Below are positions 3,933-55,949 of a stretch of DNA of 55,949 bases, piece by piece. The notes beneath the pieces are model-generated. The model was not told the DNA's origin. It did no database searches and saw nothing but the letters and a program-made list of their open reading frames with translations. Numbering within the stretch: position 1 is the first letter of the stretch; every line of letters begins with the position of its first letter. Source of the stretch: a bacterium (GTDB lineage Bacteria; Patescibacteriota; Minisyncoccia; Phycocordibacterales; Phycocordibacteraceae); assembly GCA_023264495.1 (NCBI GenBank), contig JAHFMM010000001.1, forward strand, positions 1-55,949, given 5' to 3'. The position numbers and the translations under genes were made by a program.

Positions 3933-4055
3933 TACCTATAACGCATCTTGGCGTCGCTCTTTGGCTTGTCTGCTTTTTGTGAGTCGGCAAGCTTTAGGGT
4001 TTGTTCCGACTCCGGTCGGAGTATTCGTGAATTATTAATTTAAACTATCCGAACT

Positions 4056-5255
4056 ATGGCAGAATTTGATCGCAGCAAGCCACACATGAACGTCGGGACC
4101 ATCGGTCACGTTGACCACGGCAAGACGACGCTCACGGCAGGTATCCTCAATGTTCTCTCGATGCTTACTGGCGAGGGCTACTCGGCTCGCGTTGAAGGCG
4201 TCGACAATATCGACAGCGCTCCTGAAGAGAAGGCGCGCGGTATCACTATCGCGCTCCACCACTCGGAGTATGAGTCACCGAATCGTCACTACGCGCACAT
4301 CGATGCGCCAGGACACGCTGACTATATTAAGAACATGATCACCGGTGCGGCGCAGATGGACGGCGCCGTCCTCGTGGTCGCAGCGACTGACGGCGTGATG
4401 CCGCAGACGCGCGAGCACATCCTTCTCGCGAAGCAGGTCGGCCTTAAGAAGCTCATCGTCTTCCTCAACAAGGTAGACATGGTTTCCGAGGCAGACCTCA
4501 TCGATCTCGTCGAAGAAGAGATCCGCGAGCTCCTTACCAAGCAGGGCTACGATGGTGTCAACACGCCAATTGTCCGCGGCTCGGGCTTGAAGGCGCTTGA
4601 AGCCAAGGACGCTTCTGACGAGTGGGCGCAGAAGGTGAAGATCCTTGTCGACACTATGGACACTTACTTCGACCTCCCAGAGCGCGAAGTGAATAAACCG
4701 TTCCTCATGCCGATCGAGGACATCTTCTCGATTGAAGGCCGTGGCACCGTCGTGACCGGCCGCATCGAGCGTGGTACCGTCAAGGTTGGCGAGGAAGTCG
4801 AGATCGTCGGTATAAAACCGACGGCCAAGACGACCGTTACCGGCATCGAGATGTTCAATAAGCAGCTCTCTGAAGGGCAGGCAGGCGATAATGCCGGCAT
4901 TCTCCTCCGCGGCACGAAGAAGGAAGATGTGCATCGCGGCCAGGTCCTCTCGAAGACGGGCGCGGTCACGCCGCACACCGACTTCGATGCAGAGGTCTAC
5001 ATCCTCGGTAAGGATGAGGGTGGCCGTCATACGCCATTCTTCTCTGGCTACAAGCCGCAGTTCTACATCCGCACAACAGACGTGACGGGTGAAGTTACTC
5101 TCCCTGATGGTAAGGAGATGGTCATGCCTGGCGATACTGTTACCTTCAAGGTGAAGCTTACCGCACCGGTTGCGCTCGAGGAGCAGCAGCGCTTCGCTAT
5201 TCGCGAAGGCGGCAAGACGGTCGGTGCCGGTGTGGTCACCAAGATCACTGCCTAA
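4056..5255 (+). CDS. tuf: elongation factor Tu
   Basis: 399 aa with the [14 protein letters not shown] and NKVD motifs. Confidence 0.97.
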
Positions 5256-5650: not shown

Positions 5651-5654
5651 AGAA

Positions 5655-5694
5655 ACAAAACAACCGCCGCCCTTCGGGCGGCGGTTGTTTTGTG
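5655..5694 (+). terminator. strong hairpin after rpsJ
   Basis: 18-bp stem ACAAAACAACCGCCGCCC-TTCG-GGGCGGCGGTTGTTTTGT. Confidence 0.6.
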
Positions 5695-5701
5695 CTATAA
5701 T
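5693..5701 (+). promoter_or_regulatory. extended -10 promoter of the TA pair (leaderless)
   Basis: TGCTATAAT lies 6 nt upstream of ATG 5708. Confidence 0.45.
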
Positions 5702-5707
5702 CTGCAT

Positions 5708-5896
5708 ATGACCACGACGCAGATGAAGAGAATTGAAAAACTTGCAGAAGCAAGCAGACGATACGCTAAAAAGTCGCTCGAAAAGAGCCGCGAGCTCGAA
5801 ATATATCTCAGCATCCTCGACTACAAAGCCGGTCGAGTGAAGGAATATTCGTCTGTGGACGCGATGTTTCGCGCCGCAAAACGCCTCCACATGTAG
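5708..5896 (+). CDS. putative antitoxin (62 aa) of the adjacent RelE-family toxin
   Basis: Small ORF whose stop overlaps the toxin start (TAGTG). Family not recognised; the call rests on position. Confidence 0.5.
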   Translation: MTTTQMKRIEKLAEASRRYAKKSLEKSRELEIYLSILDYKAGRVKEYSSVDAMFRAAKRLHM

Positions 5897-6159
5897 TGAT
5901 GAAACGGAACGTCCCGACTCAAAGTTTTCTCAGAAGTCTCGCGCTCTTTTTGCATCGTCACCCTGATCTTGAGGAAAAAACACACGTACTGATAGAGCGT
6001 CTCGTCACTGGCAGTTCAGAAGTGCGAATACATCCGCTTCACGGTCCGCTTAAAGGATTTTATTCGGCGCGCATCTCGCAATCTTATCGTCTCGTCTTCG
6101 CGCTCGAGCCGGACGCCGTCATCTTCATCGACATCGGCTCCCACGATGAGGTGTACTAA
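5896..6159 (+). CDS. RelE/ParE-superfamily (YafQ/RelE-like) mRNA interferase toxin
   Basis: HPLHGPLKGFYSARISQSYRLVFALEPDAVIFIDIGSHDEVY is a typical C-terminal signature of this family. Confidence 0.8.
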   Translation: MMKRNVPTQSFLRSLALFLHRHPDLEEKTHVLIERLVTGSSEVRIHPLHGPLKGFYSARISQSYRLVFALEPDAVIFIDIGSHDEVY

Positions 6160-6186
6160 AAACTAGGACATCGGATGTCCTAGTTT
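6160..6186 (+). terminator. hairpin after the toxin gene
   Basis: AAACTAGGACATC/GATGTCCTAGTTT inverted repeat. Confidence 0.5.
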
Positions 6187-6195
6187 GCATCATTT

Positions 6196-6226
6196 TGGCC
6201 AAAGCCTGGCATTGGCCATTGGCCAC
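6196..6226. repeat. TGGCCA-rich palindromic repeat, copy 1
   Basis: TGGCCAAAGCCTGGCATTGGCCATTGGCCAC. Near-identical copies lie at 39679-39712 and 33122-33144. Confidence 0.7.
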
Positions 6227-6436
6227 AACCGCCCTGGCGGGCGGTTGTGTGGTTCTTGTTTCGCATGTTAGTATGAAGGTATCCTTCTGGGTCGGACGTG
6301 TGGTTCAGGCGCCCCTTGGTCAAAAGCCAGTCGACAGGTCTAGACCAAGTTAGAACCATATTTTCGGCCCCGAGGGACTTCGGCCATAATGGTCAAGCCC
6401 TTTCGCAATCTCGCTTCGGCGGGATTTCCTATTTTC

Positions 6437-10473: not shown

Positions 10474-11271
10474 CTAACGATACGCAGGTTTCAGGATGTC
10501 TGAGAGGTCAGTAAGCGGGATGCGGAGGGTTTGCGGCCCAGCAGAGTAGGGAGCGACTGCGTAAGGCGCAAAGAGGATGACGAGATCGTTATTGTCGAAG
10601 AAAAAATTATCGAAATTCTTTTCCTCGGGCGTCGTGCCGGGCAGAATGAAGTTCTTGATAAAATCAGCGTCAGCTAGCTTTGTGCCAATGACCGCAGGGA
10701 GCTTCGTGCGAGCTATGCGCGAGAGTGCCGCAAGATACTCAGACCCAGGGACAAAGAGGTCGGTAAGAGCGAGCGGCGCGCCAGCTTGCCCTGAGTGAGT
10801 CGAAGGGTCAGTATCGAAGGAGAAGGTTTTGAAGAATAGGTTCGGATGCGCTCCAAGCGTATCTTCAGTGATAGTAAAGATGTATGAAAGCGTATGTGCT
10901 GATGAGCCGATGAGATACGTGATCTGGAGAGACTCCTTGCGACCCTTGTCGAAGCCCATCATGACGATGTCATGGGAGGTAAGATTAGCAAAGTTCCCAT
11001 TGGTTTTAAATTTGGTAATCGTACTACTCACAAATTCCTTCATTAAAGCAACGGCTGCTGTATTTGCCACAGCGCTGACGGTTACTATGTCGGTACTGGA
11101 GGCGTAATTAGCAGCGATATCATAATAGGGCGCATGTTCTGTATATTTTGAGCCAGAAAGTATCGTTACCGGCATTTCTGGAGGCGAGGATGGGCGTATC
11201 GCCAAATAAGAAATAAGCCCGATACCGATAATAAGAAGGGCGAGACTGCCGATAAGAGTATCTCTACGCAT
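10474..11271 (-). CDS. membrane-anchored DUF3298/DUF4163-like (RsiV/PdaC C-terminal-like) protein
   Basis: N-terminal transmembrane segment, then an extracytoplasmic domain resembling DUF3298 proteins. TATACT lies 6 nt before ATG 11271. Confidence 0.5.
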   Translation of the reverse strand: MRRDTLIGSLALLIIGIGLISYLAIRPSSPPEMPVTILSGSKYTEHAPYYDIAANYASSTDIVTVSAVANTAAVALMKEFVSSTITKFKTNGNFANLTSHDIVMMGFDKGRKESLQITYLIGSSAHTLSYIFTITEDTLGAHPNLFFKTFSFDTDPSTHSGQAGAPLALTDLFVPGSEYLAALSRIARTKLPAVIGTKLADADFIKNFILPGTTPEEKNFDNFFFDNNDLVILFAPYAVAPYSAGPQTLRIPLTDLSDILKPAYR

Positions 11272-11358
11272 TCGGGTAGTATAGCAACACATGAGTCGTT
11301 AGAATCAGGCCACACTATAGCAGATGCGGTAATGGAGTGGAATGAGGGAGGCGATTTG

Positions 11359-18909: not shown

Positions 18910-19043
18910 GGATTTAGAGAACTGTGGATAACGTTGCAGCGCGTGGAATTTAGGTGTAATCTATGACGCATGGGGCAAATCCGTTTTAAACGGGCTTGCC
19001 CCCTTGCCTATTAACTAGAGATAGAGAATGAAGGAGGTGTGCC

Positions 19044-19247
19044 ATGAATAACAAACAGTTAACGGCGATGATTGATGCGACTGGAGTAACTGTCGCATGT
19101 TTCTTCCAAGAAGTCGCCTATGAACTTGGGGGAAGCAGTAGCGCTATGCTGGATGAGTTTGAAATGGGACGCGTCCCTCAGGTAGCGCAAGAATACATTG
19201 AGCGTCATGAAAATGCGCAAAATAGAGGAGTTCGTGTGTGGTACTAA
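19044..19247 (+). CDS. hypothetical small protein (67 aa), possibly HTH-like
   Basis: Strong SD AAGGAGGTG 4 nt before the ATG, with an intrinsic terminator right after the stop. Family not recognised. Confidence 0.45.
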   Translation: MNNKQLTAMIDATGVTVACFFQEVAYELGGSSSAMLDEFEMGRVPQVAQEYIERHENAQNRGVRVWY

Positions 19248-19293: not shown

Positions 19294-19321
19294 TTGCACA
19301 TTCTTGCACATCCCGTAGACT
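19294..19321 (+). promoter_or_regulatory. putative promoter of adk (leaderless)
   Basis: TTGCAC, 16-nt spacer, TAGACT (19316-19321). The ATG follows 6 nt downstream. Confidence 0.4.
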
Positions 19322-19327
19322 CAGAGC

Positions 19328-19894
19328 ATGAACGACACACGAACTATCTTTTTTATCGGCAAACCAGGATGCGGGAAGGGGACTCAGGCATCATTTCTTT
19401 CTGAAGTTACAGGGTGGGAAGTTATATCAGCGGGGAAACAGTTCCGCTCAATCGCAAGCGAGGAGACCCCAGTCGGACATAAAGTGAAATCGGAAATCGA
19501 TGTCGGCATTCTCGCGCCGCATTGGTTCGCAATGTATCTCTATTTGAAGTCTCTCTTCGGGGTTAAGGAGGGTGCGAGTATTATCTTTGATGGATTCAAC
19601 CGTAAGGTTCCCGAAGCAGAATTGGTGATCAGTTCGCTCACATGGCTTAATCGTCCATTTATCGTTATCGAGATTAAAGTTTCTGATGAAGAAGTCGAGC
19701 GCCGTCTCGCGAAGCGTAAAGGGATCGAAGGTCGTGCGGATGATTCGGCAATCGATGAACGCTTGAAGGAATACAAAGAATATACCGAGCCGGCGATTGA
19801 AGTCTTCCGTATGGCGGGTACGTTGGTAGAGATAGATGGGGAGCGAACACCAGAAGAGATTGCCGCATCGATTCGCGAAGCACTCGCGCTCTAA
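19328..19894 (+). CDS. adk: adenylate kinase
   Basis: P-loop GKPGCGKGTQ in the conserved position after secY. Confidence 0.9.
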   Translation: MNDTRTIFFIGKPGCGKGTQASFLSEVTGWEVISAGKQFRSIASEETPVGHKVKSEIDVGILAPHWFAMYLYLKSLFGVKEGASIIFDGFNRKVPEAELVISSLTWLNRPFIVIEIKVSDEEVERRLAKRKGIEGRADDSAIDERLKEYKEYTEPAIEVFRMAGTLVEIDGERTPEEIAASIREALAL

Positions 19895-21483: not shown

Positions 21484-21520
21484 GCACAAACCCGCCATAG
21501 TGGCGGGTTTGTGCGTCTTG
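21484..21520 (+). terminator. hairpin terminator closing the ndk-downstream structured spacer
   Basis: GCACAAACCCGCC-ATAGT-GGCGGGTTTGTGC, the same stem family as 1208-1230. Confidence 0.55.
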
Positions 21521-21536
21521 AGTATACTGTGGCTAT

Positions 21537-23156
21537 ATGCCACCGAAACGATTTGAAGGGAAGTTCGGGATACCTTCTTCGCATACGATTGACTCGCAGC
21601 TCACCTCAGCGCTGTACCGGCTCCCTGAGTCGATGGACTCGAAAGAAATAGGGGAACAAGTAGAAAAGATTTCTGCACTCGTCAATAAGCAGATTGAGAC
21701 GAATCATCTCGAAGATAGTGAGAAGCGAGGCGAACTGCTTTCTCAAACAGAAAAACAGACGCTCTATCTCAAGCTTGCCCGTCACTATGAGGATAACGGC
21801 GAGTCGGCGCATATCGACATCTCCACGATGGTAGACGCTCTCGTCGAATCGCGGCGCTTCTTGCAGAGCGATCGAGGAAGTATCGGGAAACTCTTCGAGT
21901 TGCATGAGATGAAGACGCTCCAACGCATCGCTGAACTGCGAAGAGAGCGGGCTGAAATGACTGGCACAGAATCCCTCAACCCCTATGAGAATCTCCTCGA
22001 GACCAATGATGGGAAATATTATCTCGCACGGCTCCTCAATATGCCTCACCTCGAAACAGAGTCCAAGTATCTCGGGCATTGCGTCGGCACCAGCACGAGC
22101 TATATCAACAAGATGAAGAAGGGCGATGTCGAGATATTCTCCTTCAGAGATACACAGACGCATGAGCCGCTCATAACTATAGAGTACGACACGAAGTCGC
22201 ACCGCTTGTTGCAAGTGAAGGGAGTCGATGATTATATACCAAAGCTTTTCGATTCGTATTCGAGCGACCTCATCGAGACCATCGAGCGCTTGCCCGAGAC
22301 CGTGAATGACGAAGGCGAGCCGCGACTCGTCTCAAGCACTGAGGCGCGAGACATGAAGCAACTCGCTGGTATCAGAGACAAGACGGCAGACAAAACATCT
22401 CTTGATAGAACAGAACTTCGTTTTCTCTATGAAGTCGACGCACCGATACAGCGTTTTGATACAGAACCAGATCCTCTCATCAAGACACTCCTTGATGCAC
22501 GGGATACCACTACCGACCTACCCATCATCTTCGACTGCACACCCGAACAGATCGCCCACTCCATTTCAGAAATAACTCCCGACACAAAGGCCTATGTCGG
22601 CCCGCTTGAGAAGGGTATCTTCGACGCTCTCTCGCCCGCTCTCGAGCACGTGTATACGAAGTTCCCTGAAGGTCGCGTCAAGTTCCACTCCATCGAGCTC
22701 GGCACCGGCATCGAGAGCGGCCCGGCATTTGAGCAAGCGATACGTGATAAGGACATGGAGGTAGGTGGTTACGCAAAGCATCTCCTGGAGAGTCCCGACT
22801 TCAAAGTTGTAGGCGAACACACCAACGCTGATCTTGTTGAAATGTCAGTCGCCGCACTCGGATTCGACAGATCAACACGCTACGACGCTATCTGTGCACG
22901 CGCCCTCGAGCTCGGCCTCGAGCTCTGCCCGGCTGAAGTCGGCCCGCAACTCCGCCTCCAATACACCGATCAACCAATGAACAGTTATCTGCGAATCGCA
23001 ATGAAAGCTATTAGCGACCGCGACGGCGACCCGCGCTTCTTCCGCGTGGATCGCGATGACGTCGGCCTCTGGCTCTACACGGACTACGGGAAGCCCTTCT
23101 ACGTTTGGGGTACTGACTTTCGCTTTGTGTTCCTCCGTCCCCGCAAGGCGCTTTGA
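21537..23156 (+). CDS. large hypothetical protein with a PcfJ-like central motif
   Basis: ESKYLGHCVGTSTSYINKMKKGDVEIFSFRD resembles the PcfJ-like (PF14284) HC motif. The C-terminal approximately 300 aa are unrecognised. Confidence 0.6.
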   Translation: MPPKRFEGKFGIPSSHTIDSQLTSALYRLPESMDSKEIGEQVEKISALVNKQIETNHLEDSEKRGELLSQTEKQTLYLKLARHYEDNGESAHIDISTMVDALVESRRFLQSDRGSIGKLFELHEMKTLQRIAELRRERAEMTGTESLNPYENLLETNDGKYYLARLLNMPHLETESKYLGHCVGTSTSYINKMKKGDVEIFSFRDTQTHEPLITIEYDTKSHRLLQVKGVDDYIPKLFDSYSSDLIETIERLPETVNDEGEPRLVSSTEARDMKQLAGIRDKTADKTSLDRTELRFLYEVDAPIQRFDTEPDPLIKTLLDARDTTTDLPIIFDCTPEQIAHSISEITPDTKAYVGPLEKGIFDALSPALEHVYTKFPEGRVKFHSIELGTGIESGPAFEQAIRDKDMEVGGYAKHLLESPDFKVVGEHTNADLVEMSVAALGFDRSTRYDAICARALELGLELCPAEVGPQLRLQYTDQPMNSYLRIAMKAISDRDGDPRFFRVDRDDVGLWLYTDYGKPFYVWGTDFRFVFLRPRKAL

Positions 23157-25391: not shown

Positions 25392-25841
25392 TTAAGGAAC
25401 AAGACCAAGCTTCTCAGGCACCAATTTCTCATTGTGCTCGATGATTCTTTTTAGATAGATACGATTCTTTGATATAAAGTTGCCGAGATAGGGTGAAAAG
25501 GGTAGTCGCAACAGATCGTCAAATGCAAAGAATCTCATCTCTTGCCCTTCGTCGCCGAACTTGAGTTTCTCGACCTCCTCTTCTTCCAAACGAACGAGAT
25601 AGCGTACCACAGTTCTCTTGTCATCGAAGGATTCAATGCCCATGCGGAGTATCGTCTTAGGAATCATGCCGATCTCTTCTGTCAACTCTCTCTTCAGCGC
25701 AGTATCAAAATCTTCTCCTTTCTCGACACCGCCACCAGGCAAGTTCCAGGTATTGGGGTAGGGGATTGTCGGGACGTCATCTCTTAAGATAAGAAGCATT
25801 CTACCCTCATATATGACGAACGCTTTGACACCAATATTCAT
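25392..25841 (-). CDS. NUDIX hydrolase
   Basis: Nudix box GGGVEKGEDFDTALKRELTEEIG. TGATAAACT lies 8 nt before ATG 25841. Confidence 0.85.
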   Translation of the reverse strand: MNIGVKAFVIYEGRMLLILRDDVPTIPYPNTWNLPGGGVEKGEDFDTALKRELTEEIGMIPKTILRMGIESFDDKRTVVRYLVRLEEEEVEKLKFGDEGQEMRFFAFDDLLRLPFSPYLGNFISKNRIYLKRIIEHNEKLVPEKLGLVP

Positions 25842-25894
25842 TGTATACCAGTTTATCAAAAACGAACCCTCAATTTGGAGGGTTCGTTTTGAGT

Positions 25895-27065: not shown

Positions 27066-27164
27066 CGGGCGCAAACTTCAGTCTTCTCCAGACATGTCAC
27101 AGACGTATTCTTTGACAAAAGATGTCGGGGGTACCATAACGTCATTAATAATAAGTCATTATTT

Positions 27165-27551: not shown

Positions 27552-27575
27552 AGACGCAATCAAATGTGGTACACT
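27548..27575 (+). promoter_or_regulatory. promoter of the second TA pair (leaderless)
   Basis: TTGAAG, 16-nt spacer, TGGTACACT. The ATG follows 7 nt downstream. Confidence 0.45.
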
Positions 27576-27582
27576 TCGACCT

Positions 27583-27777
27583 ATGACCACCGCCCAGCTC
27601 AACAAGCAGATAGGGAGTATCGTCGAGCAGAAACTCCTCGAGTTTTTGGGCGACCCTGATGAAGGGCTTGAACTCAAGAAATCATTTATCACTGAGCTCA
27701 AGAAGAGCATAAAGACGAAAGGGAAGACCGTACCGCTCTCGATAGTAATGAAGAAGTATGGCATCCGTCGAGTTTAG
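27583..27777 (+). CDS. putative antitoxin (64 aa)
   Basis: Overlaps the downstream RelE/ParE toxin by 20 nt. The ATG at 27583 was chosen inside the 27403..27777 ORF. Confidence 0.5.
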   Translation: MTTAQLNKQIGSIVEQKLLEFLGDPDEGLELKKSFITELKKSIKTKGKTVPLSIVMKKYGIRRV

Positions 27778-28023: not shown

Positions 28024-28938
28024 CTACTTCGCGAGCTGACTCGGAGAGGAGAGGACGATTTCGGCCTTGCCTTGGTAAGAAGAGATCTTGCCAGAGATTG
28101 TGACAGTTTTGCCAGTATAGCGGGAAAGGTCGCCGAATTTTTTCGCATCATCAGCGAAGATAACAGCCGAGAATGGGCAGGTCTTATAGTCCTTACAGAA
28201 ATCGAGAAAGACAGTTCCGCTCTTGCTTGTGTATGCACGCATGAGCGTGGCGTGCACATAGGCAACTTCACCGATGTGTTTTGGCGCCTCAGTGTAATCG
28301 ATAGTGCCGATAGAAACGTTCGCGGCCGCATTCGCGGCCGCGGTATTACCGGCATATGCGGTGAAGAGTTGTCGCAAGATATTCTCATAGGCCTGTCGAA
28401 GTCCGGAATCAGTTCCTATTTCGAGTATTTCATCATTTATCGTTGTTGCCGAGCTTGTCCAGTTGTAGCTCCCCGTCGCATATGCTTTCTCTGTTACGAG
28501 TGTTTTGATATGCATGATGCCGTTGCCCGTCAAATGTTTTTCAAAAACGATTGGAATACCGGCATCTTGGAGTTCTTTAAGAATTGGTGCGCCATAACTT
28601 CCTGTCGCTTGACTCATATCTAGTACGCCGCGCACATCGACTCCGCGCCCTTTTGCGGCAATAAGCGCATCAGCAACTGATGAGAGTGTGAAAGTATAGA
28701 TTGCAAAATAGATGCGATCATGAGCATCAGCAATGAGAGCTATAAGTTCTTTGTCGTTCTGTTTCTTATCGAGACTGTAGATGACACGCACCGTGCCGAG
28801 TGTTGGCGCAGTTACCGTTTGTGCTTGCACGCTCACGCATGCGCCACTTGGAGCACCCCCGCTCATGGTGTACCCGATCCCACCCGCCGCGAGCGCGATT
28901 ACCGCGACCGCTCCTACTCGCAACATCTTTTGTTTCAT
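28024..28938 (-). CDS. membrane-anchored/secreted PLD-family (HKD) nuclease with a C-terminal OB-fold-like domain
   Basis: N-terminal hydrophobic segment and a single HKD motif (MHIKTLVTEKAYATGSYNWT). The C-terminal approximately 90 aa look OB-like. Confidence 0.8.
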   Translation of the reverse strand: MKQKMLRVGAVAVIALAAGGIGYTMSGGAPSGACVSVQAQTVTAPTLGTVRVIYSLDKKQNDKELIALIADAHDRIYFAIYTFTLSSVADALIAAKGRGVDVRGVLDMSQATGSYGAPILKELQDAGIPIVFEKHLTGNGIMHIKTLVTEKAYATGSYNWTSSATTINDEILEIGTDSGLRQAYENILRQLFTAYAGNTAAANAAANVSIGTIDYTEAPKHIGEVAYVHATLMRAYTSKSGTVFLDFCKDYKTCPFSAVIFADDAKKFGDLSRYTGKTVTISGKISSYQGKAEIVLSSPSQLAK

Positions 28939-28958
28939 GCATCCAGTATACTGTGCGC

Positions 28959-29660
28959 ATGGCACTTGTATTTGATATAGAAACAGTCGGAGAAGCGTGG
29001 GATGCGCTCGATGAGACGACACAGCACAATCTCGCATGGTATCTCAAAGAATCGTCCCGCTCTGAAGAAGAATACGAATATGAAATGAAAGAGCTTCGCG
29101 AAGGAATGGGGCTCTCGCCCTTGACGGGATTCATCGTCGCGATTGGGGTCTATGACACCGAAACGAAAAAAGGTGCGGTGTACTATGATGCGCGCGATAC
29201 GCAGAGTGAGCCGTATGAAGAGGAGGGCATCAAGTATGAAGCGATGGGGGAGAAAGAGATGCTTGAACAGTTTTGGAAGGTTGCGGGTGTTTGCCACGAA
29301 TTCGTATCGTTTAATGGACGTGGTTTTGATGCGCCATTTCTCGCTATCCGTTCGATGGTGCACGGCGTGAAGCCGACAAGGGACCTGCTCTCCAACCGCT
29401 ATCTTTCGATGCAACGCGGGTGCACCCACATCGACCTTATGGATCAACTTACTTTCTACGGTGCGGCACGCTTCAGGAAGAGTCTGCACCTGTTTTGTCG
29501 TGCGCTCGGTATCGAGAGCCCTAAGGCAGGAGGCACGACCGGAGACGATGTCGCGGCGCTCTACGCTGCAGGAAAATATGCGGACATCGCGCACTATAAT
29601 GCTGGCGATCTATTTGCAACCGCAGCTCTTTACGAGCGTTGGCACAATACCTTGCGCTAA
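28959..29660 (+). CDS. RNase H-fold 3'-5' exonuclease (PolB-exonuclease-like, PF10108-type)
   Basis: MALVFDIET..., FNGRGFDAPFL, HIDLMD and YNAGDL motifs. Confidence 0.75.
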   Translation: MALVFDIETVGEAWDALDETTQHNLAWYLKESSRSEEEYEYEMKELREGMGLSPLTGFIVAIGVYDTETKKGAVYYDARDTQSEPYEEEGIKYEAMGEKEMLEQFWKVAGVCHEFVSFNGRGFDAPFLAIRSMVHGVKPTRDLLSNRYLSMQRGCTHIDLMDQLTFYGAARFRKSLHLFCRALGIESPKAGGTTGDDVAALYAAGKYADIAHYNAGDLFATAALYERWHNTLR

Positions 29661-30261: not shown

Positions 30262-30332
30262 GCGGGTGCCTACAGTCTAACAGAGAATGTCATGGTTGCA
30301 GAGCGCCCCTAAGGCGCGTACCATAGGGAAAT

Positions 30333-30806
30333 ATGAAACGGCTTGGCGTCGTCGCAATCCTCCTCCTCTCCTTTTTCGGTCTGGCCGATTCGATGTATCT
30401 GGCCCAGCACGAGATGAACGGGACGCCGCTTATTTGCGATATTCAGAACCTTACCGGATGCAACATTGTCGCCTCGAGCGAATATTCAAACCTCTTCGGT
30501 ATTCCGCTCGCCGACTTCGGCATTCTCTTCTACAGCATCATTTTCGTACTCGCAATGCTTGAACTCGTCCTTTTCGATCAGCTCTTACGCCGCACGCTTC
30601 AGGGAGTGGCCTTCGTTGGCGTCCTCTCTTCGATATATTTCACTATCGTGCAAGTGTTCTTCATCGGTGCAATCTGTATCTATTGTTCCGCCTCGGCTGT
30701 CGCAGCACTCGGCATCCTTATTCTTGCAACACTCATCGAGCCGATACGCCGCCGTACCTTTTCTTCTGCTCCTCACTCGCATCTCCCGATGCCGCCGAGG
30801 GTATAG
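30333..30806 (+). CDS. vitamin K epoxide reductase (VKOR) family protein
   Basis: Four-transmembrane protein with loop cysteines (ICD...GCN) and a CIYC redox motif. Confidence 0.8.
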   Translation: MKRLGVVAILLLSFFGLADSMYLAQHEMNGTPLICDIQNLTGCNIVASSEYSNLFGIPLADFGILFYSIIFVLAMLELVLFDQLLRRTLQGVAFVGVLSSIYFTIVQVFFIGAICIYCSASAVAALGILILATLIEPIRRRTFSSAPHSHLPMPPRV

Positions 30807-34020: not shown

Positions 34021-34404
34021 CTATATGATTCTTAAAATCAGCTCCCTGAGCTTCTCATTGGTTGCCTCATCGATTTTGAGTTGCCGTGGTGAGATGCTAT
34101 CGGTTTCAATATTGTTACTCTGTGCTGGCAAGACATACACATTTCCGCTCCGCGGATTCTTTCCTGTGACTATCTTCATCCCTTCGGTTTCAAATCTCTT
34201 GATGAGATCATCTATTGAAGTACCGTATCCTGGGAACTCTTGCTCCGTTGTTTTAATCTTGGCATATGCTTCTGGAGCGATGCCGGGGAAAGGGAGACTC
34301 TCATGACTTTCAGCAATCTCCCTAATCAACGCGATGACGCTGTTGATTCTCTGCTCTCGTTCGGTGACAGGACTCTCAACTTTATTTGGTAAACCTTCTG
34401 ACAT
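34021..34404 (-). CDS. hypothetical protein (127 aa)
   Basis: TGATATGCT extended -10 lies 6 nt before the ATG. No family recognised. Confidence 0.45.
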   Translation of the reverse strand: MSEGLPNKVESPVTEREQRINSVIALIREIAESHESLPFPGIAPEAYAKIKTTEQEFPGYGTSIDDLIKRFETEGMKIVTGKNPRSGNVYVLPAQSNNIETDSISPRQLKIDEATNEKLRELILRII

Positions 34405-34433
34405 AAACAGAGCATATCACTTTTTCAAGGCGA

Positions 34434-35588
34434 CTACTTGAAATCTTTGATGCGTGCCGTTGCGCCGACTCCGGCGATAGCGACGATAGCGCCCGTAATG
34501 ACGAAGAAGAGCCGGTAGCCGTCAATAAAGAAGATGAGCGTGCCGAGGATTGGAGCAATGATGTTCGCGAGCGGCCACACGCCGCGGAAGACGCTCACCG
34601 AGACGATATTCCGTTCAGACACGCGGCGGAAGAAGTGCCCCTCAGTCATGCTCTCGATGAGCGCTGCGCCCGCACGCGTCCCGACAAGCGCCAGCACGAT
34701 GGTCGTGATTGATGACGTGCTCGAGAGGAAGCCGATGCTCATGAGCGATATACCCGCGAAGAGGAATCCGGCGAACATGAGTTCCTTGTCGCCAATGAGA
34801 CGATCGGCAATCCATCCGGCAGGATATTCGATGAGGATATAGGGAATCAGCATGATAGAGAACATCCAACCGAGCGTTGCCCACGGGAATCCGAGCGTAC
34901 CGTGCAGATAGAGAGGGACATACAGAGGAGCCCAGATATAGAAAAGGTAGAGCACGAAGTGGGCTACGGTTACCGCGGTAAGGTCGCGGTCATGCGAGAG
35001 ATGCTTGAATGTTTCTCTGAAATGAGAAAGTCTTGGTTGGACCCCTTTAGGGAGGCGCCGTTCGGTAAAGAGAACGATGAGGGGTACCATGAAGGCTCCA
35101 GCTGTGAAGAATACGTACGTATAATTGTCGGTATTCGCCAGCAGGGTTCCAATAAGAAGCGGAGCGACAAACGATCCAAGGTTCCCGCCCGTAAGGAAGA
35201 AGGTGTGCGCTCGTCCGGTAGTCCCTTCATTATCAATGGTTGCTTCAAGAAGGAGATCGAGGCCATAGTAGAGGAGCGGTTGGATCGATAAGACAAGCAG
35301 CACGAGTATGGCGCTTGCGATCGTGCTCGGCAGAGTCGCAATGGCAAAAAGCATAACCATAGCGACGAAAGAGAGGAAGAGCACCATCTTTTGCGCGCCG
35401 TAACGCCCCACAAGCGTGGGGAGGAAGAAGAAAGATGCGAGCGCAACGACAGCGCCCGCAGCGATGCCGAGCCCGATAGATGATTCGGAGATGAAAGGGG
35501 AGAGATAGGAGAGGAGCGTGTAGCTCACCAGCGTTGCTGAGATTGCAATAAAGAAATTACCAAGCGCTAAGAGTATGCGAGGATGCAT
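34434..35588 (-). CDS. MFS transporter
   Basis: About 12 hydrophobic segments with MFS-like loop motifs. Confidence 0.85.
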   Translation of the reverse strand: MHPRILLALGNFFIAISATLVSYTLLSYLSPFISESSIGLGIAAGAVVALASFFFLPTLVGRYGAQKMVLFLSFVAMVMLFAIATLPSTIASAILVLLVLSIQPLLYYGLDLLLEATIDNEGTTGRAHTFFLTGGNLGSFVAPLLIGTLLANTDNYTYVFFTAGAFMVPLIVLFTERRLPKGVQPRLSHFRETFKHLSHDRDLTAVTVAHFVLYLFYIWAPLYVPLYLHGTLGFPWATLGWMFSIMLIPYILIEYPAGWIADRLIGDKELMFAGFLFAGISLMSIGFLSSTSSITTIVLALVGTRAGAALIESMTEGHFFRRVSERNIVSVSVFRGVWPLANIIAPILGTLIFFIDGYRLFFVITGAIVAIAGVGATARIKDFK

Positions 35589-35666
35589 TGCGCTTAAAAC
35601 TATATCACAGCGCGCCCGAAGGGCGCGCTGTGGTACGTGTGAAGGTTAAACCTTCACACGTCTTGA

Positions 35667-39712: not shown

Positions 39713-39751
39713 GCACACTATGTGATATAGTCTTCTTACCATAAATAATGT

Positions 39752-40870
39752 ATGCATTCTGAAGAATCCTACAAGCCCCACGCTGAGCGGAGAGAAACAC
39801 CTAATGAACAGGCGGTCGAGATAGCTGGACGCGGGGAGTATACAGAGATAGTGCAAGTATTGCGCGAGAACGGTCTTCTTGACGATGAGGTTGCCAGAGT
39901 GCGGCAGGAGTATGGGCTCGATGATATCCAGTGTATGACAGATGATGATCGACAAGAGTTTACCGTGCTTGATCTCTATGATCCAGAAACCGCACGGCAT
40001 TGTCTCGAGACCTACCGTCTCGCCCGGGAAAAGATGGAGAAGGAAATCTCTCCCGGGATATCATTTGCGCAACTCATCGAACGGCAAGACGGTGTATCGC
40101 TCGATCAATTCTATCGCGCCTGCCTGCTGCACGATATAGGGAAAGTCGAGGTGCCGCGCGCAATCATACACCATCCTATGGGTGATGCTGCCATGCTTGA
40201 GTGCGTTCACCACTTCTTTCATGAGCTGTACACGGCTGGAAAAGTACCTGCGGTGCTTGGGTTGGGAGAGAATGCGACAGATGTCGATATCGACCAGGCC
40301 TTTAAGGATCATCGTATGGTTCGTCCGATACAGGTAGTGCCGGCGTATGACGTGCTTACGCGAGAGGAACTAGCAGAAATCTATCGTCGTGGGTTTACCG
40401 GAGAAGAAACTTTGCTCGATATCATTAAGCCGCACGAAGCCGCCTCAGGCCGTATTCTCTCCGAGCGAGGACTGTCGGTCGAAGCATATCTCGTCGCACA
40501 CCATCATAATTATGGCGGAGAATCATTGCGTTACCCGATTGCTATCGGGGCAATGGACATCAGTATCGACCTTGTCGACGTGTTGCATCTCGCTGATGTG
40601 TCGCAAGCGCTACGCTCGCCTGCACGCCGCTACAAAGAAATATTCGGCGATTTGCATAATATGGCGATCATCGTTAAACATGCTGAAGAAGGGAAAGTGT
40701 CGCCGATTGCGGCATACTTCTGGCTTGAGGACGATTTAAAGACCTACGAAAGACAAAACAAAGAAAAAACTTCGAATCAAGAGAAATCAAAAGAAGAGGA
40801 AGAGCATCTTGTTGCCGTGCGTTCCTTCCTGACTAAGACCGAGAGCGCCATCGGGCAAGCATTGCACTGA
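39752..40870 (+). CDS. HD-domain phosphohydrolase, HD-GYP-like with a degenerate GYP motif
   Basis: LLHDIGK, HHHNYGGESLRYP and LADVSQALRSPARRYKE motifs. Confidence 0.7.
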   Translation: MHSEESYKPHAERRETPNEQAVEIAGRGEYTEIVQVLRENGLLDDEVARVRQEYGLDDIQCMTDDDRQEFTVLDLYDPETARHCLETYRLAREKMEKEISPGISFAQLIERQDGVSLDQFYRACLLHDIGKVEVPRAIIHHPMGDAAMLECVHHFFHELYTAGKVPAVLGLGENATDVDIDQAFKDHRMVRPIQVVPAYDVLTREELAEIYRRGFTGEETLLDIIKPHEAASGRILSERGLSVEAYLVAHHHNYGGESLRYPIAIGAMDISIDLVDVLHLADVSQALRSPARRYKEIFGDLHNMAIIVKHAEEGKVSPIAAYFWLEDDLKTYERQNKEKTSNQEKSKEEEEHLVAVRSFLTKTESAIGQALH

Positions 40871-42946: not shown

Positions 42947-42975
42947 TTGACAGCTGTAATACAGCTTGTTACACT
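42947..42975 (+). promoter_or_regulatory. consensus-like promoter with an operator-like inverted repeat for the third TA pair
   Basis: TTGACA, 17-nt spacer, TGTTACACT. The ATG follows 8 nt downstream. AACAAGC (42939-45) and GCTTGTT (42964-70) bracket the -35/spacer. Confidence 0.55.
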
Positions 42976-42983
42976 CTATATAT

Positions 42984-43199
42984 ATGAGAAGCGTCATAAA
43001 TATCTCCGTTCCTGATCTAGTAAGGAAAGAGGTCGATCGCGAAGTGCGTGCCGGCGGCTACGCCTCAGTGAGCGAATTCTTCCGTGCTGTGTTGCGCGAA
43101 CGAAAGGAGCAGATGCTCCTGCGCGATGTCGAAGAAAGCCGTCGAGAAGTTCAAGCCGGGCACGCGCGAGTATTGCGATCGCTGAAGGATCTCCGCTAG
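42984..43199 (+). CDS. ribbon-helix-helix (ParD/CopG-like) antitoxin
   Basis: MRSVINISVPDLVRKEVDREVRAGGYASVSEFFRAVL, upstream of a RelE-family toxin. Confidence 0.65.
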   Translation: MRSVINISVPDLVRKEVDREVRAGGYASVSEFFRAVLRERKEQMLLRDVEESRREVQAGHARVLRSLKDLR

Positions 43200-43488: not shown

Positions 43489-44223
43489 TTACGAGAGGGT
43501 GAGATGCTCGTTGAAGCTTATGACACGCCATCCGCGAGCTGGTGAGAATAGTTGCCACGGATGGAATTCGATTATCGTAATGCCGGCATTGTCAGAAATA
43601 TTGAAGAAAGAAAGTTTTACGAAATCGCTCGCGTGGAGCCGTTCTCGGTAGAGGAGATACGCGACAATCATCTTGAGGATGTGGTGGTGAGTAATAATGA
43701 TCGTGCCATCTCGGCCTTGCTGTGCGAGAAGCGCGAGGCAAGTTCGCGCACGCTTCTTCAGTTCTGAGAATGTTTCTTCGTCAGAGAAAAGATAGTCGTC
43801 ATCGTGGTAGGCAAGATCCATCTGATCGACGATGCGGATGACTTCGGGATCCCGCGTGTTCTTGCCGATGATCTCGCTCGGGTTTCTTCTCTCGGTGAAA
43901 AGAAGAGAAGGGATGATAGGGACATGAAGATTGGCATTGATGATCGCCGCAGTCTCAAGCGCTCTCGGATAGGCGCTTGAGACGATGCGTGCTATGCGGA
44001 GGGGGCGCAAATACTTTCCGATCATGACCGCCTGTTCTCGCCCGCGTTCTGACAGTTCTCCAGTCTCCCCTTGCCGAATGTGTTGCGCATTAAGCAGGGT
44101 TTCGCCATGACGAATAAGATAGAATCGCCGCGGTCGCATGAACAAGAGCAGTATGAGGATACCGGAAACGCATGCGATTGTGGCGAGGACAGGGTCTATC
44201 TCAAGAGAGGCGGGCATGTGCAT
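43489..44223 (-). CDS. histidine phosphatase (phosphoglycerate mutase-like) family protein with an N-terminal transmembrane segment
   Basis: LIRHGETLLN catalytic motif. The start may be ATG 44217, which has TATACT 8 nt upstream. Confidence 0.8.
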   Translation of the reverse strand: MHMPASLEIDPVLATIACVSGILILLLFMRPRRFYLIRHGETLLNAQHIRQGETGELSERGREQAVMIGKYLRPLRIARIVSSAYPRALETAAIINANLHVPIIPSLLFTERRNPSEIIGKNTRDPEVIRIVDQMDLAYHDDDYLFSDEETFSELKKRARTCLALLAQQGRDGTIIITHHHILKMIVAYLLYRERLHASDFVKLSFFNISDNAGITIIEFHPWQLFSPARGWRVISFNEHLTLS

Positions 44224-44252
44224 CTAGTATACCCGAATGATACACTTCACCC

Positions 44253-45740
44253 ATGAAGTTACATAAGTATCTCGCTTCTCATGGATGGATGTACAGCATC
44301 GTCGCTCTCGTTGTCATTGTGAGCGGCTATATATTCTTTGCGAGACACACCGGCTCACCCTATCAATTCATCACCGTCACGCGGGGTTCTATCGAGCAGA
44401 CGGTCTCGGTGACGGGTAATACGACGCCCACAAAGAGCGTCTCGCTCGGCTTTCAGAATACCGGCACGATCGCGCATCTCTATTATTCTTTGGGAGATCG
44501 GGTAGCGGCAGGCGCGATCATTGCCGAGCTTAACACGGCAAGTCTCTCGGCTGCATTCGCACAGGCACAGGCGAATCTGGCGGTTGCACAGGCGAATCTG
44601 GCAGGACTCACTGCGGGCACGCGGCCCGAACAGCTCGCCATCGATCAAAACGCTGTCATGCAAGACCAGATTGCGCTCAGGAATGTGATCATGAGCGCAT
44701 ATGCCGCTGCCGACACAGCCGTTCATAACACTGCCGATCAGCTCTTTATCAATCCACGCACCACAAATGCCGCGCTTACGGTTGTCGTCCCTGATGCGAA
44801 CCTTGTCAATCAGATAGTGCAAGAACGTAGCGCTCTCGAGCCAGTGCTCGCCAATTGGAATGCCGAGAACATTACTGCCGTACAGGCATCAGAGAATCTC
44901 ACGCAAATCACCGTCTTCCTTAATGATCTTGCTGCTGCTCTCGCTAAGACACAACCCTCGGCAAACATCTCAGCCACAACCTTGAGTTCGTACGCATCGG
45001 CAATAGCGGCCGCACGCACAAGCGTCACTGCTGCAGCGAGCGCATTGACCGCGGCACAGTCGGTGCTCACGGCCGCAGATGGCGCACTCGCACTCGCGCA
45101 GGCGGGTCCGACGCCACAGGCAGTAGCGGCGGGGGAGGCGCAGGTCGCGGTGGCGCGCGCAAGTGTCGCAAGCGCTCGAGCTGCTCTTGAGAACGCAGAG
45201 ATTGTCGCGCCTATAGGCGGCACCATCATCGGACTCGACGCGAAGGTCGGCCAGCTCGCGACGCCCGGCACGCCGCTTGTCGCTATCATCGGTACCGGCG
45301 GTTTTGAGGTCGATGTTGGCGTCTCGGAGACGGATATCGGCAAGCTCACGGTCGCAGACGCGGCGTCGATGACGCTCGACGCCCTCCCGAACGAGACCTT
45401 CACTGGCAAGGTATTCTATATCGCTCCCGCGCAGACCAACACGCAAGGTGTGATCACGTATCTGATCAAAATATCCTTCGACAAGCCGGACGCGCGCTTC
45501 AAGAGCGGGCTCACGACGAATGTAACTATCGAATCGAAGCGCGACGACAATGTCCTCATACTCCCGCAGTATGCGATCTTGCAGAACGATAGCGGCACCT
45601 TCGTTGAGATCTTGTCTAGGGGCGGAGCGACGACGAGCCCCGTCACGCTCGGCATACAAGACCAAAAAGGAAACGTCGAAGTGCTCCGTGGTGTGAGCGA
45701 GGGGGAGCAGGTGATTAATATCGGGCTCAAGCCACAATGA
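44253..45740 (+). CDS. HlyD/MacA-like periplasmic adaptor (membrane fusion) protein
   Basis: N-terminal transmembrane segment, long Ala-rich coiled coil and barrel domains. Translationally coupled to the ABC genes. Confidence 0.8.
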   Translation: MKLHKYLASHGWMYSIVALVVIVSGYIFFARHTGSPYQFITVTRGSIEQTVSVTGNTTPTKSVSLGFQNTGTIAHLYYSLGDRVAAGAIIAELNTASLSAAFAQAQANLAVAQANLAGLTAGTRPEQLAIDQNAVMQDQIALRNVIMSAYAAADTAVHNTADQLFINPRTTNAALTVVVPDANLVNQIVQERSALEPVLANWNAENITAVQASENLTQITVFLNDLAAALAKTQPSANISATTLSSYASAIAAARTSVTAAASALTAAQSVLTAADGALALAQAGPTPQAVAAGEAQVAVARASVASARAALENAEIVAPIGGTIIGLDAKVGQLATPGTPLVAIIGTGGFEVDVGVSETDIGKLTVADAASMTLDALPNETFTGKVFYIAPAQTNTQGVITYLIKISFDKPDARFKSGLTTNVTIESKRDDNVLILPQYAILQNDSGTFVEILSRGGATTSPVTLGIQDQKGNVEVLRGVSEGEQVINIGLKPQ

Positions 45741-48557: not shown

Positions 48558-48840
48558 ACAGCGGTCGAAGGTCGCGGTAGATCGAATCGCGGAAGTATGG
48601 GATAATCGATCCCTCAGAAACCACGTCCACAGGGCGGTTTAGTCGTTCAGTAAGCATCTCGCGTAGCCCAACGTAATCACGCAATGACGCATGATCGCGA
48701 TACACAACGAGTACGTCTATATCGCTGTCCGGCCGCGCCGCGCCGCGCGCGAAGGAACCAAAGATATGCGCACGCTTCACGCCATATTTCTCGAATACGG
48801 GTCTCGCTTTTCTTGCAATATCTTCTATTGTTGGCTGCAT
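48547..48840 (-). CDS. mntA: MNT-type nucleotidyltransferase antitoxin
   Basis: FGSFARGAARPDSDIDVLV motif. The ATG at 48840 was chosen, with TGGTATAAT 6 nt upstream. Confidence 0.85.
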   Translation of the reverse strand: MQPTIEDIARKARPVFEKYGVKRAHIFGSFARGAARPDSDIDVLVVYRDHASLRDYVGLREMLTERLNRPVDVVSEGSIIPYFRDSIYRDLRPLYEG

Positions 48841-48868
48841 GCGCGCATTATACCATATGCTACAACAT

Positions 48869-48948: not shown

Positions 48949-49012
48949 TATTCTACACGTATCCAATATTCTCCCTGCTACAATGGTCGACAAATATGGT
49001 ATGCTGAAGATA

Positions 49013-49243
49013 ATGAAAAATATCATTCAGTACCGCATCTTTAAGGGTGACAAATACTATGTCGCCGAGGGTTTGGATTTGCCGGTAGTTACGCAGGGCA
49101 AGACGCTCGATGAGCTTGCGAAGAATATCCAAGAAGCCACAGAGCTCTGTCTCGAAGGTGAGAATCCCGCCGACTTCGGTCTTGCACCGGCCTCTCCACT
49201 GTTCGTCAACTTCGAGTTGCCCCGCAGTTTCTCGCATGCCTAA
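49013..49243 (+). CDS. hicB: HicB-family antitoxin
   Basis: YRIFKGDKYYVAEGLDLPVVTQGKTLDELAKNIQEA. ATG 49013 is preferred because TGGTATGCT lies 7 nt upstream; ATG 49001 is also possible. Confidence 0.75.
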   Translation: MKNIIQYRIFKGDKYYVAEGLDLPVVTQGKTLDELAKNIQEATELCLEGENPADFGLAPASPLFVNFELPRSFSHA

Positions 49244-49502: not shown

Positions 49503-49582
49503 AGCGCCGGCCGCTTTGCGGCCGGCGCTACGCTTGCGCTATCCCCACACCAGGCTTGCACGCCCGCGCTTCGCGCGGGCGT
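49503..49582. repeat. 80-nt double-hairpin repeat, copy B
   Basis: Same 80 nt as copy A, with hairpin-2 loop TTC instead of GAA. Confidence 0.8.
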
Positions 49583-54933: not shown

Positions 54934-54986
54934 GTGGAGATAGAATATCACAAGACTTACTAACGTGCCTGCTTCTCAGGCGTTTT

Positions 54987-55613
54987 TCAATGCGAAAGAG
55001 CGATAGGGATGATATGTTTTGCGCCCGCGGCAGTCAGCGCATCGATACCTGCTTGGAGCGTGGCGCCGGTCGTGAGGACGTCATCAATGATGATATACGT
55101 CGTTTCCGGATAGAGGACATGCGCGGCGCCGAAGGCGCCGCGCATGTTCGCTTCTCGCTCCGCACGCGGGAGTGAGACTTGCGACACGGTCTCACGGACG
55201 CGAGAAAGAATATTTGCGTGCAGGACAATGCGAGACATGCCTTCTGCGCCAAGCACACCAAGAGCGCATCGTGCCACTTCTTCGGTCTGATTAAATCCGC
55301 GCGTCTTACGCCGGAGCTTCCCGAGCGGTATGGGTATGAGCGTTCCTGCCTGCACGTCCTCGTCAAGATCGCGCAGGTATTCGGCGAGAACGCCGCCAAG
55401 AAGAGTGATGGCGCGGCGATTCCCATGATATTTTGCTTCATGCATGAGAGATGCCACCATCGGATCAGAGAATGAGAGAAGCGTTACCGTCCCCGGCCGT
55501 GTTGCCGGAGAGAGTTGCGGCGAGACACGGCTCGATACGTCATCTTCGGTCGCCTGGCGGACCGCAAGCTCGTCCACACGAGGAGGGAAGAGAAGGTCAA
55601 GGAAGCGCTTCAT
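54987..55613 (-). CDS. comF: ComF-family phosphoribosyltransferase-fold protein
   Basis: PRTase motif IIIDDVLTTGATL. The ATG at 55613 was chosen. The N-terminus lacks the usual Cys pairs. Confidence 0.8.
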   Translation of the reverse strand: MKRFLDLLFPPRVDELAVRQATEDDVSSRVSPQLSPATRPGTVTLLSFSDPMVASLMHEAKYHGNRRAITLLGGVLAEYLRDLDEDVQAGTLIPIPLGKLRRKTRGFNQTEEVARCALGVLGAEGMSRIVLHANILSRVRETVSQVSLPRAEREANMRGAFGAAHVLYPETTYIIIDDVLTTGATLQAGIDALTAAGAKHIIPIALSH

Positions 55614-55630
55614 GGTAGTATTATTCTCAC

Positions 55631-55949
55631 ATGGCGTTCCTCGATTTCCTATTTCAGAAGAAGGCGCAAAGCGTTCTGGGCGTTGACATCGGCTCATCGT
55701 CTCTCAAGGTCGTGCAGCTCCGCCGCGAGCGCGGGCAGGCAGTGCTTGAGACGTATGGCGAGCTCGCGCTCGGCCCTTATGGCGGATCGGAGGTTGGCCA
55801 GGCGACCAATCTCTCGGCTGAGCAGGTAACCGAGACGCTCACTGACCTCCTGCGCGAGGCGAAGGTGACGACAACGCAGTGCGGTGTCTCGATACCGTTT
55901 GCCCGATCGCTGCTTGCTCTCGTGAAGCTTCCCTATCGCAAGGACACGA
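55631..55949 (+). CDS. pilM: type IV pilus assembly protein PilM, N-terminal part (runs off the window)
   Basis: My own translation from ATG 55631: MAFLDFLFQKKAQSVLGVDIGSSSLKVVQLRRERGQAVLETYGE... Not in the ORF track because there is no stop in the window. Confidence 0.8.
   Translation, partial: MAFLDFLFQKKAQSVLGVDIGSSSLKVVQLRRERGQAVLETYGELALGPYGGSEVGQATNLSAEQVTETLTDLLREAKVTTTQCGVSIPFARSLLALVKLPYRKDT

Follow-up and report, generated by a model that had tools for sequence, protein, structure and literature searches.

A -10 promoter box 6-9 bases before the ATG in about 40% of the genes of a Patescibacteria genome suggests messages that begin at the start codon

Promoter boxes of the -10 type stand 6-9 bases before the ATG in about 40% of the genes of a tiny uncultured bacterium of the Patescibacteria (Kaiserbacteria-like Parcubacteria), so that the mRNAs of these genes most likely have the start codon at their very 5' end. 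The stretch of DNA analysed, called here the window, comprises positions 1-55949 of contig C11 in a 560-kb draft genome (31 contigs, 54% G+C, completeness estimated at 91.5%), whose SecY protein is 76-84% identical to proteins of metagenome-assembled genomes that bear the label Candidatus Kaiserbacteria, Parcubacteria or Paceibacterota. Located in the window are the str-S10-spc ribosomal protein region, adk, map, infC (the IF3 gene, 26451-27077, minus strand), five toxin-antitoxin (TA) pairs and assorted other genes. An original prediction, made from the window alone, had pointed to boxes before 15 of its start codons and read them as a sign of apparent leaderless mRNAs; this interpretation is supported by the arrangement of the sequence described below. 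In our view the boxes would be sigma-70-type -10 elements placed for leaderless mRNAs, which ribosomes would bind without Shine-Dalgarno (SD) pairing, while the genes downstream in each operon would be translated by coupling. We give this reading a probability of about 85%.

The spacing seen in the window is found throughout the genome. Genes were called with a self-trained codon-usage model, which yielded 519 open reading frames (ORFs), and motif statistics were computed on 482 genes. The hexamer TANNNT lies 6-9 nt (N6-9) before the first in-frame ATG in 177 of the 482 (37%); it starts at -12, -13, -14 and -15 (N6, N7, N8 and N9) in 71, 35, 40 and 43 genes, respectively, and at other offsets in about five genes each. 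Dinucleotide-preserving shuffles of the 40 nt upstream of the starts (300 shuffles) gave 37.8 +/- 5.9 genes with a maximum of 56, and for the narrower N6-8 spacing originally proposed the count was 140 against 28.5 +/- 5.1. The enrichment is thus 4-5 fold relative to shuffled upstream regions, so that the lack of enrichment named as grounds for refuting the original prediction is not seen, and it is more than 10 fold relative to internal ATGs, since the box precedes only 2.1% of internal in-frame ATGs (n=2,677) and 2.8% of out-of-frame ATGs (n=4,673). When any ATG within the first 60 codons was allowed as the start, the share of genes with a box rose to 44%, compared with 2.7% in a decoy region.

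Such a peak might be imitated by composition, if AT-rich intergenic DNA, upstream stop codons (TAA, TAG) and the choice of start codon combined to produce TANNNT at the right place. The gene caller was home-made, and a few of the matches are TAATTT or TAATCT created by an upstream stop codon. We nevertheless regard this explanation as having next to no chance of being correct, because shuffles that keep dinucleotide composition return 38 genes rather than 177, the motif shifted 20 nt further upstream is present in only 3%, and the same peak appears when no gene calls are used. In this last test, run over the whole genome, 167 of 628 TGNTANNNT sites have an ATG 6-10 nt downstream, over a background of about 9 per position; no peak follows TGNTANNNT for GTG, TTG, CTG or ATC, and four scrambled control motifs show no ATG peak downstream. 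Leaderless initiation prefers AUG, and the restriction of the peak to ATG is consistent with that preference. Furthermore, the same pipeline, applied to two other Patescibacteria genomes of the candidate phyla radiation (CPR) that keep the anti-SD sequence, with 200 kb taken from each, gave a much weaker signal, with TANNNT at N6-9 in 16% and 22% of genes as against 38% here.

Several observations support the idea that the motif is a promoter element. An unbiased comparison of upstream k-mers brought out TATACT (40 vs 1), TATAGT, GGTATA and TGGTAT, and in an aligned logo information is found only at T-A-n-n-n-T and at a T and a G in positions -3/-2, which is the extended -10 form. A genome-wide search for a strong -35 element brought up no more than a modest signal at 17 bp, where TTGACA-like hexamers are enriched about 3 fold at exactly this spacing. 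The motif also precedes genes that are never translated: TANNNT lies 8-12 nt upstream of the mature 5' end in 13 of 25 tRNA genes (1.0 expected), and TGCTATAAT-N7 stands before model position 1 of the RNase P RNA gene (C15:6675-7023). The window contains one such non-coding control, TGATATTCT on the minus strand at 54934..54950, 8 nt before the mature 5' end of tRNA-Ser (54844-54933). The motif is therefore a promoter and not a ribosome-binding site. With a -10 box so close to the mature 5' end, the 5' leaders of the tRNA precursors should be only about 1-5 nt long; RNase P RNA is encoded despite these near-leaderless precursors.

The distribution of the box follows position in the operon. It is present before 55-70% of genes that come after a same-strand gap of 16-100 nt, 45% of divergent genes and 16% of genes lying no more than 15 nt from the upstream stop codon, and ribosomal protein genes inside operons mostly have no box. 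Genes after same-strand gaps of more than 100 nt have it in 26% of cases, a class inflated by missed small genes: the caller overlooks TA genes, L29, S14, the NUDIX gene and the exonuclease gene at 28959, so that this gap class and the count of 'unexplained' genes are unreliable. The word 'pervasive', as first applied to the -10 boxes, is justified for the first genes of transcription units and has to be given up for operon-internal genes, which include most of the ribosomal protein genes.

A ribosome that could use SD sites does not appear to be available in this organism. The 16S gene (C7:16520-19615; loci L001 and L002) is interrupted near its 3' end, at AAGUCGU|AACAAGG, by a group I intron (RF00028) about 780 nt in length, which itself contains a long insert; a group II-like element (matching group II intron D1-D4) lies further upstream in the gene, and tRNA-Ile follows. 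After the intron the 16S 3' end reads AACAAGG-CACGGGUAGCGGAAGCUGUUCGU-GGAACAUAUCCAAUUU, where GGAACAUAUCCAAUUU is the tail behind helix 45 and has no CCUCC. Inspection of this end, as the original prediction had proposed, thus showed that the anti-SD sequence is missing, with a tail GGAACAUAUCCAAUU in place of ...CACCUCCUU. Intron-free members of the genus have the same AAGUCGU|AACAAGG junction and the same tail. CCUCC is absent from all recovered 16S 3' ends of the genus (about nine genomes, this one included) and from those of eight other families of the order, whose tails are still more degenerate, while the tails of the seven other Patescibacteria families examined contain ACCUCCUU, and five of these families have the full GGAUCACCUCCUU. 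Because the tail is without CCUCC, SD pairing is impossible in this organism. The upstream regions agree with the absence of SD motifs first noticed in the window: GGAGG or AGGAG precedes 2-4% of genes, which is background, and GGAGG 3-18 nt before the start is found in 3.2% of box-less genes, 0% of box genes and 2.2% of a control region. In the two anti-SD-keeping genomes used as a control of the method, GGAGG/AGGAG precedes 13% and 16% of genes, compared with 2% here. A 67-residue ORF between secY and adk (19031-19247, plus strand), which has its own terminator, does carry a textbook SD sequence, GAAGGAGGTG, 6 nt before its ATG at 19044. The ribosome of this genome has no anti-SD; the ORF may have been imported recently, or the sequence may match by chance.

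The arrangement has been kept in related organisms. Of the 24 closest loci that have an adk match, 20 show TANNNT at N5-7 upstream of this gene, 17 of them with N6 and mostly as TGNTAGAGT, and across these relatives the sequence of the spacer is variable while its length is fixed; overall, a box at N5-10 precedes adk in 45 of 59 relatives. When TGNTANNNT-N6-9-ATG is counted against the reversed pattern, it is in excess by 1.6-7 fold in all 12 genomes tested from the genus and by 1.5-4.4 fold in eight other families of the order. Among 100 Patescibacteria genomes this ratio, a crude measure that is compressed in AT-rich genomes, ranges from about 0.8 to 7.3.

These comparisons also bear on the possibility that the motif acts on the mRNA as a substitute ribosome-binding site, either by pairing with the altered 16S tail or as an AU-rich enhancer for S1, in transcripts that start further upstream. 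A tail reading 5'-AUAUCC-3' could base-pair with GGAUAU or with GAUAU, a sequence similar to TGATAT; the distance from motif to ATG is also roughly that of an SD site; GATAT precedes 8.8% of box genes and 2.5% of the others; and a bS1 protein with four S1 domains is encoded. We consider this possibility very improbable. The conserved T-A-n-n-n-T, with TG two bases upstream, is the pattern of sigma contacts rather than a contiguous complement of the tail, and GGAT and TGGAT are not enriched upstream of genes. In addition to standing before untranslated tRNA and RNase P RNA genes and having a -35 signal at 17 bp, the motif is missing from operon-internal genes, including the highly expressed ribosomal protein genes that would most need a ribosome-binding site. 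Finally, the tails vary between families of the order (AUAUCC, AUUUCC, AUUCAA, UUUCAA, UCUUCC) while the TGNTANNNT-N6-9-ATG excess persists; the excess was seen in the eight other families, and tails were determined for four of those and for four further families. The specific idea of a new ribosome-binding site complementary to the altered 16S tail is rejected on account of the sigma-type pattern, the non-coding RNA genes and this variation of the tails.

A different objection accepts the boxes as real but takes them for minor or internal promoters, with most expression coming from longer leadered or polycistronic transcripts and leaderless mRNAs being a minor species. Many boxes do lie inside or right behind the preceding gene, at gaps of 12-40 nt, some of them using its TGA as their TG; adk behind secY is the classical order of the spc operon; and terminators were checked for only a minority of boxes. 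We find this explanation unlikely, although less so than a substitute ribosome-binding site. A GC hairpin followed by a T-run stands directly ahead of the boxes at 5708, 21537 and 25841, of adk and of a giant ORF, and in divergent pairs with 17-27 nt between the ATGs there is no space for a second promoter. The ATG is fixed 6-9 nt after the box, and this spacing is kept in about 20 species, which is hard to explain if the start were unimportant; moreover, with neither SD nor anti-SD, leadered forms would have no obvious advantage.

With terminator, -10 box and ATG fitted inside about 45 nt, these regions illustrate the extent to which intergenic DNA can be reduced. Where two genes are separated by 12 nt (examples on C12, C6, C26 and C11), the TGA stop of the upstream gene supplies the TG of the next extended -10 element, and in the resulting TGA-TAnnnT-N6-ATG arrangement the whole promoter lies inside 15 nt. 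About ten divergent pairs genome-wide have start codons 18-27 nt apart and overlapping -10 boxes on both strands; examples are C12:13061-13083, C5:6560-6584, C18:37366-37388 and, in the window, 28938/28959 and 55613/55631. A single palindromic box can serve two genes, and a promoter can include the stop codon of the gene before it. Bidirectional promoters that arise through -10 symmetry have reportedly been described by Warman, Forrest, Wade and Grainger. The two pairs in the window resemble them in sharing overlapping -10 hexamers on opposite strands, and differ in that both divergent transcripts would also be leaderless here and that the promoter is the whole 17-20-nt intergenic region.

In the leaderless mechanism that we favour, RNA polymerase with the primary sigma factor would recognise the (extended) -10 box, with consensus TGnTATACT/TATAAT and a weak -35 element, and transcription would start at the A of the AUG or no more than about 3 nt away from it. 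The position 7 nt after the box is the modal start for bacterial RNA polymerase and equals the A of the ATG at N6, and N7-N9 fall within the known range of start-site choice. The base at -1 is a pyrimidine in 81% of box genes (74-86% across spacer classes) and G is avoided there, as would be expected if transcription began at the A in a Y(-1)R(+1) context. The resulting 5'-AUG mRNA would then be bound directly by the ribosome and initiator tRNA, without SD pairing. This mode would serve about 37-44% of all genes, that is, most first genes of transcription units, and would cover the five TA operons, adk and several divergent pairs that share one promoter region of about 20 nt. Genes downstream in operons, including most ribosomal protein genes, would probably be translated by termination-reinitiation or coupling. 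We propose coupling for them because many of the stop-to-start distances of box-less close genes fall between -4 and +14 nt, with 24 ATGA overlaps and most of the others at 0-14 nt.

Some observations count against this account and have to be set beside it. The pyrimidine at -1 is a weak argument, because it is also found in 70% of genes without a box. Spacers of 8 or 9 nt occur almost as often as spacers of 7, and 43-48% of the N8-N9 genes have an A 7 nt behind the box, so that some mRNAs may have leaders of 2-3 nt. Of the hexamers counted, four or five are not promoters but TAATTT in the context of a stop codon, and about 30% of the called genes have neither a box nor tight coupling, which is partly due to the crude gene caller. 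The genes fusA, rpsL and rplC appear to belong to a minority of first genes that look leadered. In addition, no match to a primary sigma factor (Sigma70 region 3) was obtained in the 91.5%-complete draft, in which the sole sigma factor found is a 218-residue protein of the extracytoplasmic function (ECF) type (C18:14036-14692, minus strand). An ORF of 420-630 residues with a region-3 match is present in 19 of 20 genomes of the genus, and the missing gene is therefore probably located in the unassembled portion of about 8%.

Genomes rich in leaderless genes, a layout of Deinococcus and Actinobacteria, are known elsewhere among bacteria, as 'TA-led' genes (Zheng et al. 2011, PMC3160421), as 'group C' of GeneMarkS-2, in which 25-50% of operons carry a leaderless signal (Lomsadze et al. 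2018, PMC6028130), and, in Deinococcus-Thermus, as the '-10 region adjacent to ORFs', which concerns about 30% of ORFs there, the highest share of the phyla surveyed (PMC12340547, 2025). [quoted passage not shown] The share of genes found here, 37-44%, is at least as high as the average of about 30% in Deinococcus-Thermus. Zheng et al. (2011, PMC3160421) look for significantly more such genes than in dinucleotide-preserving shuffles, and in the present genome the 177 genes stand against 37.8 +/- 5.9, with the signal belonging to the first genes of operons. The genome differs from group C, whose other genes have SD sites and whose 16S keeps the anti-SD, in showing no SD signal at all and in having lost the anti-SD, and it differs from all three systems in the prominence of the extended -10 TG.

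Loss of the anti-SD is itself already published: Tsurumaki et al. (2022, RNA 28:1041, PMC9297842) found the sequence in only 48% of Parcubacteria, with losses that overlap the group without uL1, and stated that SD helices presumably do not form, leaving the route of initiation unstated. The present genome resembles this subgroup in its tail without CCUCCU and in the apparent lack of uL1, for which a search with PF00687 gave no match in the 91.5%-complete draft although a control search matched 14 of 14 genomes. Its bS1 with four S1 domains and the presence of an IF3 gene agree with membership as well. Beyond that study (PMC9297842), the promoter-at-ATG layout offers an answer on initiation for about 40% of the genes, and thereby a concrete and testable answer to the published question of how translation starts in Parcubacteria without a 16S anti-SD. 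Our literature search found no description of a leaderless layout for Patescibacteria, CPR, Saccharibacteria or Parcubacteria, and Parcubacteria/Kaiserbacteria (CPR) are not named in the leaderless-genome literature that it returned. What we describe appears to be a known mechanism in a lineage where it is apparently undescribed, coexisting with total loss of the SD system. A comparison with Bacteroidota ('group B' of GeneMarkS-2) is also instructive, in that they likewise have few or no SD sites before genes. Their A-rich non-SD motif precedes all genes, internal ones included, whereas the -10 box is absent here from operon-internal genes. Bacteroidota keep the anti-SD, which is lost here.

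The relation between the layout and anti-SD loss was considered across the phylum. Three of the seven other Patescibacteria families, represented by genomes G048, G035 and G021, keep CACCUCCUU and yet show more than 100 excess sites, while the other four keep it and show no excess. In this small sample a one-to-one link of anti-SD loss with the promoter-at-ATG layout is contradicted, and the layout seems wider than the loss. The excess already present in families which keep the anti-SD suggests an order of events in which leaderless expression first became widespread and the anti-SD could then be lost without harm. A more far-reaching possibility, to which we give somewhat less than even odds, is that the order has dropped SD-guided initiation altogether and relies only on 5'-AUG leaderless mRNAs for nearly every transcription unit and on termination-reinitiation for the cistrons downstream. 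If this were true, these organisms would offer a natural model of SD-less translation in bacteria, in which tRNA precursors are likewise almost leaderless.

Within the window, all 15 sites of the original prediction show the hexamer, spacer and ATG that had been assigned to them, and the later in-frame ATGs chosen at six of these sites hold up as well. These are 11271, 27583, 28938, 48840, 49013 and 55613, where the ATG is the second or a later one in its frame; translations agree with the choice: the extensions upstream do not look like coding sequence, and each protein begins as members of its family typically do. At chosen later starts, MKQKMLRVGAVAV... is a membrane anchor, MALVFDIETVG contains the exonuclease motif (FDIET at residue 6) and MQPTIEDIARKA... 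fits MNT; MKRFLDLLFP fits ComF and MAFLDFLFQKK...GVDIGSS fits PilM. Pfam domains begin 5-17 residues into the proteins when these are read from the chosen ATGs (RHH at residue 5, NUDIX at 5, ADK at 10). Gene finders that assume SD sites will misplace starts in such genomes, as several true starts in the window are second or later in-frame ATGs.

The five antitoxin promoters all have the extended TGn form, as had been claimed, with TGC at 5708, TGG at 27583, TGT at 42984, TGG at 48840 and TGG at 49013, compared with 35% of box sites genome-wide. Pfam matches the toxin partners of all five pairs (RelE/YafQ-like, ParE, YafQ-like, HepT and HicA) and two of the antitoxins (RHH and MNT). The first pair begins with TGCTATAAT-N6-ATG (5693..5710, plus strand), directly after a terminator hairpin, before the gene of a 62-residue antitoxin candidate; the RelE/YafQ-like toxin gene follows at 5896-6159. 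The second begins with TGGTACACT-N7-ATG (27567..27585, plus strand) and a 64-residue antitoxin candidate, with the ParE toxin gene downstream at 27758-28009. The third, the RHH antitoxin gene, has a full sigma-70-type promoter at 42947..42986 (plus strand), TTGACA-N17-(TGT)TACACT-N8-ATG, whose perfect TTGACA at N17 spacing is read directly from the sequence; the YafQ/RelE-like toxin gene is next, at 43206-43463. The fourth, on the minus strand, has TGGTATAAT-N6-ATG (48838..48855) before the MNT nucleotidyltransferase antitoxin gene, which is followed by the HepT toxin gene (48195-48557). The fifth has TGGTATGCT-N7-ATG (48997..49015, plus strand) before the gene of a 76-residue protein, with the HicA toxin gene downstream; judged from its translation the protein looks HicB-like, although it has no Pfam match. 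In such TA operons, operator, promoter and start codon must overlap. The first of these cassettes, with its own terminator-promoter module, sits between rpsJ and rplC (5651-6388); it splits the S10 operon, and rplC therefore needs a new promoter or leader.

The remaining predicted sites belong to genes of varied function. The adk gene has TAGACT-N6-ATG (19313..19330, plus strand), with TTGCAC 16 nt upstream of the hexamer, and its box and spacing are those kept in relatives. The PcfJ-like protein gene follows a hairpin and has two overlapping hexamers (21520..21539, plus strand), TATACT at N8 and TACTGT at N6 before the ATG at 21537. On the minus strand, TGCTATACT-N6-ATG (11269..11286) precedes, at the second in-frame ATG, the gene of a DUF3298 membrane-anchored protein; TGATAAACT-N8-ATG (25839..25858) precedes a NUDIX hydrolase gene and follows a terminator hairpin; and TGATATGCT-N6-ATG (34402..34419) precedes the gene of a 127-residue protein without a family match. 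A HlyD-like membrane-fusion protein gene on the plus strand has TGATACACT-N6-ATG (44238..44255). The divergent pair at 28936..28961, a PLD-like gene on the minus strand and a PolB-exo-like gene on the plus strand separated by 20 nt, shares the palindrome AGTATACT, which reads TATACT-N6-ATG on both strands and places the A's of the start codons 21 nt apart. In the second pair (55611..55633; 17-nt gap, start-codon A's 18 nt apart), TATTAT-N6-ATG leads into the PilM-like gene at 55631 on the plus strand, with a second hexamer, TAGTAT, at N9, and AATAAT-N6-ATG leads into the ComF-like phosphoribosyltransferase gene at 55613 on the minus strand. This AATAAT is present as described, and it keeps A-11 and T-7 but not T-12, so that it is not a TANNNT box.

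Further sites were found in addition to those predicted. They are GGGTATACT-N8-ATG at 44217 (44215..44234, minus strand; the second ATG of a gene divergent from that at 44253), TACCAT-N8-ATG at 30333 (30319..30335, plus strand), TAGTTT-N8-ATG at 35588 (35586..35602, minus strand), TACCAT-N9-ATG at 39752 (39737..39754, plus strand) and, as a weaker candidate, TAAACT-N9-ATG of tuf (4041..4058, plus strand). For the ORF of a 1730-residue surface protein, the region 49560-49606 (plus strand) shows the usual module of a terminator hairpin and then TAGTATACT, but with N9 and with TTG as its only early start. Just beyond the end of the window, a run of N at about 55950-56050 of C11 is flanked on both sides by the same pilM coding stretch, TETLTDLLREAKVTT..., and appears to be an artefact of scaffolding by which the PilM gene that begins at 55631 is split.

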